Below, in pieces: positions 12,483 through 57,874 of a DNA stretch of 64,000 nt. Positions within the stretch are counted from its first letter, which is position 1; the number at the start of each line of letters is the position of its first letter. The stretch lies in NCBI RefSeq assembly GCF_003334305.1, contig NZ_QOWS01000011.1; one strand, 5' to 3'. The notes under the pieces were generated by a model, which was given only the letters and a program-made list of their open reading frames with translations, made no database searches and was not told the origin of the DNA. Source of the stretch: Escherichia coli. Its GTDB lineage: Bacteria > Pseudomonadota > Gammaproteobacteria > Enterobacterales > Enterobacteriaceae. A program made the translations under genes and the position numbers.

Positions 12483-12796
12483 TATGTATTCCCTTGTGAT
12501 TATAATCTTCATGAATATATCAATAAGTGCCGTTATCCAAAAAAAAGCACATTTGGATACTATTCTATGAAGTTCATTTTATTTTAAGGATTACATGTAA
12601 CAAATGTATTTAAAAGATTTCAAAGTGTTTCTAATATATTTAATATAATTCAGGATTATGAATTCTGAATATAAACATTCATGAAGATTATAAATGTATA
12701 TCAATAAGTTATGAGTTGAACTGAAAGATAGGGAGTATCAATGATCGTTGCGCTAAACGGCTGGTGTGATCACGCGCACATTAATGAAGGCATAAA

Positions 12797-12826
12797 AAAA
12801 AGCCGGCATCATGCCGGCCCAAAAAA
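12797..12826 (-). terminator. Strong intrinsic terminator on the minus strand in the porin-yedR spacer
   Basis: GC-rich hairpin GCCGGCATCATGCCGGC followed by eight U on the minus strand. Confidence 0.7.
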
Positions 12827-12886
12827 TATAAACAAGACGATAAAAGGCTAATAACGGAGGCATCATGACACAGAATAATAAAAAGG
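12797..12886 (-). ncRNA. rseX: Candidate small RNA (about 90 nt) ending at the terminator; position consistent with RseX
   Basis: Possible sigma70 promoter (TTCAAT, 18-nt spacer, TACAAT) about 90 nt upstream of the terminator on the minus strand; RseX placed between yedR and yedS from memory; 5' end not established. Confidence 0.4.
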
Positions 12887-13030: not shown

Positions 13031-13414
13031 TTGACTGGCTCATTCAATGTGGAAAAATGTGATTTTTATCACATAATAGTACTAAGTCTGAATTTTCCGG
13101 GTTATCTCAAAATGGAATACGGTTCGACAAAGATGGAAGAGAGACTCTCTCGCAGCCCTGGTGGCAAACTGGCTTTGTGGGCTTTCTATACATGGTGTGG
13201 CTATTTCGTCTGGGCAATGGCGCGTTACATCTGGGTGATGAGCCGGATCCCCGATGCCCCCGTGTCGGGATTTGAAAGCGATTTAGGCTCTACCGCGGGA
13301 AAGTGGTTAGGGGCACTGGTCGGATTTTTATTTATGGCTCTGGTCGGGGCATTGTTAGGCAGCATTGCCTGGTACACCCGACCTCGTCCCGCACGTAGCA
13401 GACGCTATGAATAA
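13031..13414 (+). CDS. yedR: Small inner-membrane protein YedR (start uncertain; alternatives at 13112 or 13133)
   Basis: ORF with two predicted transmembrane helices; the CRP site lies inside the longest ORF, so the true start may be downstream. Confidence 0.6.
   Translation: MTGSFNVEKCDFYHIIVLSLNFPGYLKMEYGSTKMEERLSRSPGGKLALWAFYTWCGYFVWAMARYIWVMSRIPDAPVSGFESDLGSTAGKWLGALVGFLFMALVGALLGSIAWYTRPRPARSRRYE
13058..13073. promoter_or_regulatory. Consensus CRP site (TGTGA-N6-TCACA)
   Basis: TGTGATTTTTATCACA, perfect match to both CRP half-sites. Confidence 0.6.
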
Positions 13415-21219: not shown

Positions 21220-21306
21220 AACACATCAGATTTCCTGGTGTAACGAATTTTTTAAGTGCTTCTTGCTTAAGCAAGTTTCATCCCGACCCCCTCAGGGTCG
21301 GGATTT
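21220..21306 (+). ncRNA. dsrA: DsrA small regulatory RNA
   Basis: 87-nt match to remembered DsrA, including the terminal CCCGACCCCCTCAGGGTCGGG hairpin and U-tract. Confidence 0.95.
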
Positions 21307-49339: not shown

Positions 49340-49564
49340 TTACTGACGGTAGGCTTGTTTAATTTGCTTAACCGTTTTGGAAAATACTGCAGCCTGGGTT
49401 TCGTCTTCGATCAGCGCAAGCTGTTTTTCCATCTTTAACATCACGCGGCCCGCGTCAGCTTGTCCCATCGCCTGCAGCATCAGCGTCAGCATCGCTTTCA
49501 GGCAGGAGACTTCATTTGCCAGTTCTTGATTATTCTCGGCAGTAGAAAAATCAGGCGTACTCAT
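49340..49564 (-). CDS. yecF: Small protein YecF
   Basis: 74-aa ORF. Confidence 0.8.
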
Positions 49565-50022
49565 TTATTTTCCTCGTCATGTTGCAATGAAAATTTGCGG
49601 TGAAAAATGTTAAGGCGGCGGAGTATACCATAAGCTTTGCTAAAAATAGCAGTGGTTGTTTTTTGAGCGTGGTATCGGCAGTGCTATAAAATACGTTAAT
49701 ATAATGACCAATAAATATTTTTATCATGAATGTTTTTTGCCCGTATTGTTCGGGTTAATTAATGTTACATATTCAGCGGGATGATTTTCATTTTTGCTGA
49801 ATAAAGTCAATTTTTGTCACATTTCATCGTAGGGCTTACTGTGAAACGATCCGGTAAGCCGTTGGTGACGGGCGTGACCATAACTGTGGACAATCGAATT
49901 TACAAAAACGAGAGAAAAATCGAATACCCACCATTTTTAACGTTTCAAAGTTGCAATAAAAACCGCTAATATACGAATGACTAACTATCAGTAGCGTTAT
50001 CCCTATTTCTGGAGATATTCCT

Positions 50023-56835: not shown

Positions 56836-57159
56836 TTAGAGAAAGACAGGGAAGGCGGAATGATGGCACTGATATGACAAAGTGAATTCCGTATTCAAAC
56901 ATAAGGAACCCGCAAAAAGGCTACAGTTGCCTACTGGCTGACCAAAGGGGATAGCGTGGGTATAGCCTTCCTGCTGGCATGCGCGATCGGCGATCCCGCG
57001 ACTGACATAACGATCGGTACGGGCATGCTGCAAAAAAGCCTGATCATAAACCAACCGAACAATACCTGTTGCCGTGTCAACTTCGCCCACATGAGCCTGG
57101 CGAGTAACTGTGCACCCCGCCAGCGTTATTAATGAAAGAGTCAGAATCAGAAGTCTCAT
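56836..57159 (-). CDS. yecR: Lipoprotein YecR
   Basis: 107-aa ORF with lipobox LAGC. Confidence 0.85.
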   Translation of the reverse strand: MRLLILTLSLITLAGCTVTRQAHVGEVDTATGIVRLVYDQAFLQHARTDRYVSRGIADRACQQEGYTHAIPFGQPVGNCSLFAGSLCLNTEFTLSYQCHHSAFPVFL

Positions 57160-57324
57160 GGTCCAGCCAGAAGAGTAAAAGAAAGCACTATTTTACGCGT
57201 TACAGCGCTGCGACAATGGCCGGAAAAGACGCCTGGCAGGCGCTATTTCTTGCCATCTGTAGGTGTCAGAAATGGGGGTGCTGCTTTTTGATTATCATTT
57301 TTATAACATTAAAAGGGTATTTAT

Positions 57325-57340
57325 GTGATTTGCATCACAT
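57325..57340. promoter_or_regulatory. Consensus CRP site upstream of azuC
   Basis: TGTGATTTGCATCACA; a second CRP-like site TGTGATGGTTGTCATA lies about 20 nt downstream. Confidence 0.65.
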
Positions 57341-57421
57341 AAAGATTGATTTTTGTGATGGTTGTCATATTATAAGTGCAAAGACAATAACACCTGCATA
57401 ACAAATAGTCGGAGTGCCGCG

Positions 57422-57508
57422 ATGAAACTGCGCAAGATCCTGAAAAGTATGTTCAATAACTATTGCAAGACGTTCAAAGACGTACCACCAGGCAATATGT
57501 TCCGATAA
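57422..57508 (+). CDS. azuC: Small protein AzuC (28 aa); the mRNA also acts as the IsrB/AzuR RNA
   Basis: Translates to MKLRKILKSMFNNYCKTFKDVPPGNMFR; below the size cut-off of the ORF track. Confidence 0.85.
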   Translation: MKLRKILKSMFNNYCKTFKDVPPGNMFR

Positions 57509-57514
57509 CAAAAA

Positions 57515-57537
57515 ACCTGCTCCGGCAGGTTTTTTTG
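57515..57537 (+). terminator. azuC intrinsic terminator
   Basis: ACCTGC TCCG GCAGGTTTTTTTG hairpin with U-tract. Confidence 0.85.
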
Positions 57538-57622
57538 TGTCCTGGTGACGGTGGATGTGACTATCGCTGAAGATGTGAAGCCGCTACTATAACGGCTTTC
57601 AAAATGCTATCAGGAGTTTACG

Positions 57623-57874
57623 ATGTCCCAGCCGCTGAATGCCGATCAGGAACTGGTTTCTGATGTGGTTGCTTGCCAGTTGGTTATCAAACAAATTCTC
57701 GACGTTCTGGATGTAATCGCGCCCGTTGAAGTTCGCGAAAAAATGTCCAGCCAGCTGAAGAATATCGACTTTACTCACCATCCCGCCGCCGCAGACCCGG
57801 TCACCATGCGGGCAATCCAAAAAGCCATCGCGCTGATTGAACTCAAGTTTACCCCACAGGGCGAATCCCATTAA
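57623..57874 (+). CDS. yecJ: Small protein YecJ
   Basis: 83-aa ORF. Confidence 0.85.

Follow-up and report, generated by a model that had tools for sequence, protein, structure and literature searches.

The azuC/azuR locus in an Escherichia coli genome: a 28-codon gene, a regulatory RNA and a CRP palindrome that coincides with a published FNR motif

Introduction

The closest described system to the locus analysed here is AzuCR of Escherichia coli K-12, an RNA initially discovered under the names IS092/IsrB (Raina et al. 2022, PMC8915982). Translation of AzuC was shown by means of an SPA tag and backed by ribosome profiling, and the protein proved to be amphipathic and membrane-associated, to co-purify with GlpD and to raise dehydrogenase activity (Raina et al. 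2022, PMC8915982). In the same study, the RNA in its AzuR role was found to repress cadA and galE by base pairing inside the ORF, which was confirmed with compensatory mutations, and translation and pairing were found to interfere with each other. The small RNA FnrS pairs 25-31 nt upstream of the ORF, by which AzuC synthesis is repressed, and both Hfq and ProQ bind the RNA in K-12 (Raina et al. 2022, PMC8915982).

Several studies bear on the control of this RNA. AzuC-SPA was higher in a crp deletion of K-12, and RNA and protein were both abundant on glucose and scarce on glycerol or galactose, owing to repression of transcription by CRP (Raina et al. 2022, PMC8915982); a 2025 preprint also found isrB RNA to be up in a crp mutant. 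The yecJ-yecR intergenic region was the most abundant class of clones, with 59 clones, in genomic SELEX with cAMP-CRP (Shimada et al. 2011, PMC3105977). Further regulators were proposed by Ekdahl et al. 2025 (PMC12266141), who assigned FNR, PhoP and NarP repressor motifs to the isrB promoter.

Here we describe a locus in a 64-kb stretch of E. coli DNA, the whole of which is referred to as the window. We conclude, with a probability of about 95%, that this locus is E. coli azuC/azuR (AzuCR, formerly IsrB/IS092), a CRP-repressed dual-function RNA that acts both as an mRNA and as a base-pairing sRNA. The gene, the protein, the RNA function and the control by CRP are all already published and annotated. 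What the window itself gives is sequence identity, anatomy, conservation and predicted pairings, and the functional statements on azuC made below are carried over from the K-12 experiments.

Results

The reading frame at 57422-57508 (+) comprises 28 codons followed by TAA and translates exactly to MKLRKILKSMFNNYCKTFKDVPPGNMFR, as had been claimed for azuC in a first-pass annotation made from the letters of the window. That annotation had proposed a comparison with the K-12 azuC annotation as a check, and no mismatch was seen: the protein is identical to K-12 b4663 at 28 of 28 residues. The peptide matched the NCBIfam equivalog NF033642 at 75.9 bits (cutoff 30, E = 1.3e-21), with profile positions 1-26 of 26 covered. 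The public collection also contains the exact sequence, named AzuC, as part of a 26-member 90% cluster whose listed members were all named AzuC, came from E. coli or Shigella and showed single-residue differences each.

The genomic setting agrees with this assignment. Of 5426 complete E. coli genomes, 5420 matched a 441-bp query around the ORF, and every match listed carried an azuC annotation next to yecJ. The synteny of yecR (-), azuC (+) and yecJ (+) is the same in K-12 and in a genome that is identical over the azuC stretch, where the gene order reads tyrP, yecH, ftnA, yecR, azuC, yecJ, ftnB, araF; the RefSeq name given in genomes 100% identical over this stretch is 'stress response protein AzuC'. 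K-12 MG1655 carries two features here, the CDS azuC (b4663, 1987873-1987959) and the ncRNA azuR (b4434, 1987843-1988001), and the RNA of the window at 57380-57538 aligned to K-12 azuR without gaps, with 155 of 159 bases identical. No family for the AzuCR RNA was found in Rfam 15, which reflects the lack of a model and is no evidence against the identity; the Rfam 15 matches on this RNA were sub-threshold and driven by the terminator (STnc370 at 30 bits against a gathering score of 54, rsmX and istR). The identification of azuC thus rests on exact identity to AzuC together with synteny, conservation, promoter and terminator, and not on ORF length.

ORF length alone was no better than chance, with 35 ORFs of at least 20 aa overlapping the 2-kb stretch. 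The absence of azuC from the ORF list, which the first-pass annotation had pointed out, is explained by the default floor of 60 aa, which omits the gene. When the floor was set to 20 aa, the ORF lister saw the azuC frame only as a 48-aa TTG-started ORF at 57362-57508. We rejected this longer frame as a gene, as its TTG lies upstream of the transcription start site and the frame is shifted in other species. Two antisense ORFs were rejected as well, with replacements and indels or frameshifts piling up in them across the Escherichia alignment. The accompanying statement that genuine genes below 60 aa exist in the window holds for azuC, and a 58-aa ORF at 49551-49727 (-), which lies at the position of yecU in the related genome NZ_CP033635.1, is a candidate for a further one.

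The transcript spans 57380-57538 (+) and measures 159 nt as aligned to K-12 azuR. Its start at 57380 was inferred by alignment to K-12, where the published start site is 1988001 (Raina et al. 2022, PMC8915982). A promoter scan placed a -10 hexamer, TATTAT, at 57368-57373 (+), 6 nt before the base that corresponds to the K-12 azuR 5' end, and a candidate -35 hexamer, TTGATT, called by consensus match only, at 57346-57351 (+), between the two CRP sites described below. The two hexamers are spaced by 16 bp and together match the consensus at 9 of 12 positions. A Shine-Dalgarno sequence, GGAG, was read from the sequence at 57412-57415 (+), 6 nt before the ATG, and the coding sequence of 28 aa plus stop occupies RNA positions 43-129. 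These numbers follow from RefSeq coordinates with the published start site 1988001, which give 159 nt and an ORF at 43-129, in slight mismatch with the RNA of 164 nt and the ORF at 40-126 stated by Raina et al. 2022 (PMC8915982). The encoded peptide has a net charge of +6 and a helical hydrophobic moment of 0.53, compared to 0.24 +/- 0.12 in shuffles.

The ORF is followed at 57511-57537 (+) by an intrinsic terminator, in line with the first-pass annotation, formed by CCUGC-UCCG-GCAGG, extended by A:U pairs and followed by U7. The fold of 57505-57540 has an energy of -16 kcal/mol with z = -5.5, and 0 of 200 shuffles folded as well. A simple terminator consensus scan overlooked the azuC terminator, probably because its stem is lengthened by the A-run and T-run on either side; the only hit was a 5-bp hairpin at 57230-57242. 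This GC-rich hairpin, CGCCTGGCAGGCG, stands in the interval from the yecR start to the azuC promoter and is followed by a T-rich tail. It is conserved in both the window and K-12, there is no obvious plus-strand gene upstream for it to terminate, and it falls within the likely yecR leader on the opposite strand.

To describe conservation, we aligned five sequences: the window, K-12, a strain labelled E. coli SCPM-O-B-8794, E. whittamii and Escherichia sp. E1V33. The three Escherichia representatives other than K-12 and the window were found by scanning genome contigs for MFNNYCK codons, a search that also gave ~30 chance matches in unrelated taxa. The scan returned no typical E. coli representative although K-12 fits the pattern, and the absence of azuC from other species is therefore not established by it. 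On the yecR side, the sequence of the three scan representatives could not be aligned with the window beyond ~57285.

Both pairs of CRP half-sites, the -35 hexamer TTGATT, the -10 hexamer and the GGAG of the Shine-Dalgarno sequence are invariant in the five sequences. The terminator hairpin and its U7 are identical in all five, and the A-run on the 5' side differs in length by one base in E. whittamii. In each CRP spacer 2 of the 6 positions are variable, and variation is free in the bases immediately before the start site. Within the ORF, 12 sites are variable and are split 1/1/10 by codon position; of the variable codons, 10 of 11 are synonymous, and the one replacement is K8R. The third-position bias has a binomial P of 5e-4, or 3e-3 when the seven codons (10-16) fixed by the search pattern are left out. 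As judged from the alignment, this pattern is the signature of a translated ORF together with selection on the CRP half-sites.

The promoter region carries two CRP sites, for which no strand is assigned, and both had been noted in the first pass, one as perfect and one as CRP-like. CRP site 1, TGTGATTTGCATCACA, at 57324-57339 is a perfect palindromic consensus (TGTGA-N6-TCACA with 0 mismatches) that extends from -56 to -41, counted from the start site at 57380, with its centre at -48.5. CRP site 2, TGTGATGGTTGTCATA, at 57354-57369 has one mismatch and extends from -26 to -11 with its centre at -18.5, and thereby takes in the promoter spacer together with the leading 2 bases of the -10 hexamer. 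In the 64-kb window the perfect pattern TGTGA-N6-TCACA occurs twice, compared to 0.02 matches expected from shuffles, while matches with at most one mismatch number 5 against 2.0 expected, which is no significant enrichment. What carries meaning is the presence of two CRP sites on a single promoter, with their centres 30 bp apart, and not the window-wide count. Both sites are consistent with the two CRP sites predicted in the published promoter figure. The prediction of these sites is said to come from Hemm et al. 2010. Direct CRP footprints on either individual site were not found in the literature searched.

The sole other perfect CRP palindrome in the window, TGTGATTTTTATCACA, is intergenic and lies at 13058-13073, ~175 nt upstream of the 5' end of the RseX sRNA and roughly 60-75 nt upstream of the plus-strand drpB/yedR start as mapped to NZ_CP033635.1. 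A one-mismatch CRP site is present at 12765-12780. The RseX gene itself, at 12795-12884 (-), matched Rfam RF01401 at 99 bits, and a second sRNA gene, DsrA, at 21220-21306 (+), matched its Rfam model at 102.5 bits; both scores are above the gathering score.

Coordinate mapping connected the upstream palindrome with a further regulator. In Ekdahl et al. 2025 (PMC12266141), K-12 1988039-1988055 and 1988042-1988058 are listed as FNR repressor motifs, and mutating the motif is reported to cause derepression; the main occupancy changes in their data lie upstream of the annotated CRP sites. K-12 1988042-1988058 reads ATGTGATTTGTATCACA and corresponds to window 57323-57339, that is, to the palindrome of CRP site 1.

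At the RNA level, positions 57391-57397 (+) read CACCUGC, the FnrS pairing site at its published position 25-31 nt upstream of the ORF, and form a perfect complement of the FnrS 5' end, GCAGGUG. Pairing of AzuR with the K-12 cadA and galE 5' regions was predicted with RNAduplex in 32-nt windows. The predicted cadA duplex involves RNA positions 83-114 at -28.7 kcal/mol and lies over the cadA Shine-Dalgarno sequence and start codon, and the predicted galE duplex involves RNA positions 90-118 at -21.3 kcal/mol. The predicted seed region for both targets, 57462-57497 (+), falls inside the ORF, where the pairing region is also placed in the published account (PMC8915982). When the full RNA was run against 170-nt targets with unrestricted RNAduplex, the duplexes were too long to be realistic, and the galE energy was no better than that of shuffles. 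In a single-sequence minimum free energy fold of the 159-nt RNA, the Shine-Dalgarno region (UCGGAGUGCC) is paired with the 3' end of the ORF (window 57409-57500, RNA ~29-127), and this predicted pairing suggests that the ribosome-binding site may be intrinsically occluded.

Compared to K-12 azuC/azuR, the window has the same promoter hexamers, CRP half-sites, Shine-Dalgarno sequence, terminator and yecR/yecJ neighbours. The RNA differs from K-12 azuR by four substitutions (+18 U>C, +28 G>A, +57 A>G and +108 G>A), of which the two in the ORF, +57 (K5) and +108 (P22), are both synonymous, and the promoter differs by one change in the spacer of CRP site 1 (T>C) and one at -3. The change at +18 turns the FnrS site from CACCUGU in K-12 to CACCUGC in the window; C18 (57397) replaces the terminal G-U of the FnrS seed by G-C, which makes it fully Watson-Crick, and the local duplex is computed at -13.9 kcal/mol, compared to -11.5 kcal/mol for K-12. 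A108 lies within the predicted cadA and galE duplexes and changes them by at most 1 kcal/mol. C18 is found in all three non-K-12 Escherichia sequences, and position 28 is A in E. whittamii and Escherichia sp. E1V33 and G in SCPM-O-B-8794. The azuC allele of the window (57200-57640) is rare: an identity of at least 99% to it is reached by 26-30 of ~5420 complete E. coli genomes, with the rest at 95-99%. A genome that is 100% identical over the azuC stretch falls to 97.7-98.7% identity, with indels, in the remainder of the window.

Discussion

Taken with the K-12 literature, the anatomy of the locus is consistent with the following model. A sigma-70 promoter (-35 TTGATT, -10 TATTAT) would start the RNA at ~57380, and the intrinsic terminator would end it at ~57538. 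The core promoter is flanked and overlapped by the two CRP sites (-48.5 and -18.5); in the absence of glucose, cAMP-CRP on the promoter would block RNA polymerase, so that the RNA would be made mainly during growth on glucose. The positions of the sites thus point to steric occlusion of the core promoter as the probable means of repression by CRP. The one RNA would carry two competing activities, the AzuC protein activating GlpD and the ORF-internal sequence repressing the cadA and galE mRNAs. Anaerobic control would come from the sRNA FnrS, whose pairing with CACCUGC in the 5' UTR would block AzuC translation.

Two other readings of the locus conflict with this model. It is barely conceivable that the RNA is solely a non-coding sRNA (IsrB) and the 28-codon ORF an untranslated chance ORF. 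The RNA was indeed first described as the sRNA IS092/IsrB, chance short ORFs are abundant (the 35 of at least 20 aa that overlap the 2-kb stretch), and the pairing region overlaps the ORF, so that constraint at the RNA level could explain some of the conservation. However, variation in the ORF is concentrated at third codon positions (10 of 12 variable sites) and leaves the residue unchanged in 10 of 11 variable codons, the antisense ORFs over the same alignment gather replacements and frameshifts, and a conserved GGAG stands 6 nt before the ATG, to which the published SPA-tagged protein, ribosome profiling and GlpD co-purification (PMC8915982) have to be added. With a translated azuC as the preferred reading, the tandem CRP sites could still be taken to activate it, or mainly to serve the divergent yecR, which we consider very improbable. 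[quoted passage not shown] As for yecR, CRP site 1 lies ~165-180 bp upstream of its start codon at 57159, and Shimada et al. 2011 (PMC3105977) list the region as a divergent yecJ/yecR intergenic target and leave undecided which promoter is controlled; control of yecR may be an additional role of the tandem sites next to repression of azuC.

A further alternative concerns the identity of the regulator at the upstream palindrome, 57324-57339, which could be wholly or partly an FNR operator, so that part of what is called CRP control would be oxygen control, or both signals would be integrated. FNR sites follow the consensus TTGAT-N4-ATCAA, and the positions that tell CRP sites from FNR sites are the outer ones of the half-sites, G as opposed to T. 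The inner 14-mer of the palindrome, GTGAT-N4-ATCAC, agrees with the FNR consensus in 8 of 10 positions, whereas the CRP consensus is matched at 10 of 10, and both positions that mismatch FNR, the outer ones of the two half-sites, are of the CRP type in having G in place of T. The published FNR motif coordinates do coincide with CRP site 1 (Ekdahl et al. 2025, PMC12266141), and FNR binding near the promoter was measured in earlier ChIP-seq work cited in that paper. Mutation of the motif, though, would destroy CRP binding too, which leaves the FNR-site mutant ambiguous; the intergenic region is the top class in cAMP-CRP SELEX (PMC3105977), and RNA and protein are up in crp mutants. We therefore consider an FNR operator at this site unlikely, and repression by CRP remains the preferred reading of the palindrome.

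A combined version, in which one 16-bp operator is common to CRP and FNR and FnrS silencing is tighter with the C18 allele found here than in K-12, is put forward as a tentative idea that is probably not correct as a whole. If the shared operator were real, one and the same 16 bp would receive both the carbon and the oxygen signal, and part of the phenotype published for the 'FNR-site' mutant would be due to CRP. The FNR assignment needs a control that separates the two regulators, as it concerns a palindrome that is, by its coordinates, the canonical CRP site of the DNA most often recovered in CRP SELEX. The comparison with K-12 also means that natural azuC alleles differ at a position of the FnrS seed.

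The first-pass reading of azuC is supported by these results and was incomplete rather than wrong. It omitted the regulatory-RNA half of the locus (AzuR/IsrB), the role of CRP as a repressor and the FNR motif published at the same palindrome. Its value is one of calibration: a 28-codon gene hidden by a 60-aa ORF floor was recognised without tools, which illustrates that such floors lose real genes.

Several dual-function RNAs resemble the locus in general design. Spot 42/SpfP of E. coli (PMC8916003) is, like AzuCR, a CRP-repressed base-pairing regulator of carbon metabolism that also encodes a tiny protein. The targets of the two proteins differ, being CRP itself for SpfP (15 aa) and GlpD for AzuC; the sequences are unrelated, and no homology is claimed. 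SgrS/SgrT of E. coli and VcdRP/VcdP of Vibrio cholerae (PMC8672173) likewise combine a small protein with base pairing tied to sugar metabolism, and their sequences are again unrelated to AzuCR. In these two systems, however, the coding and pairing regions are separate, whereas in AzuCR they overlap and compete.
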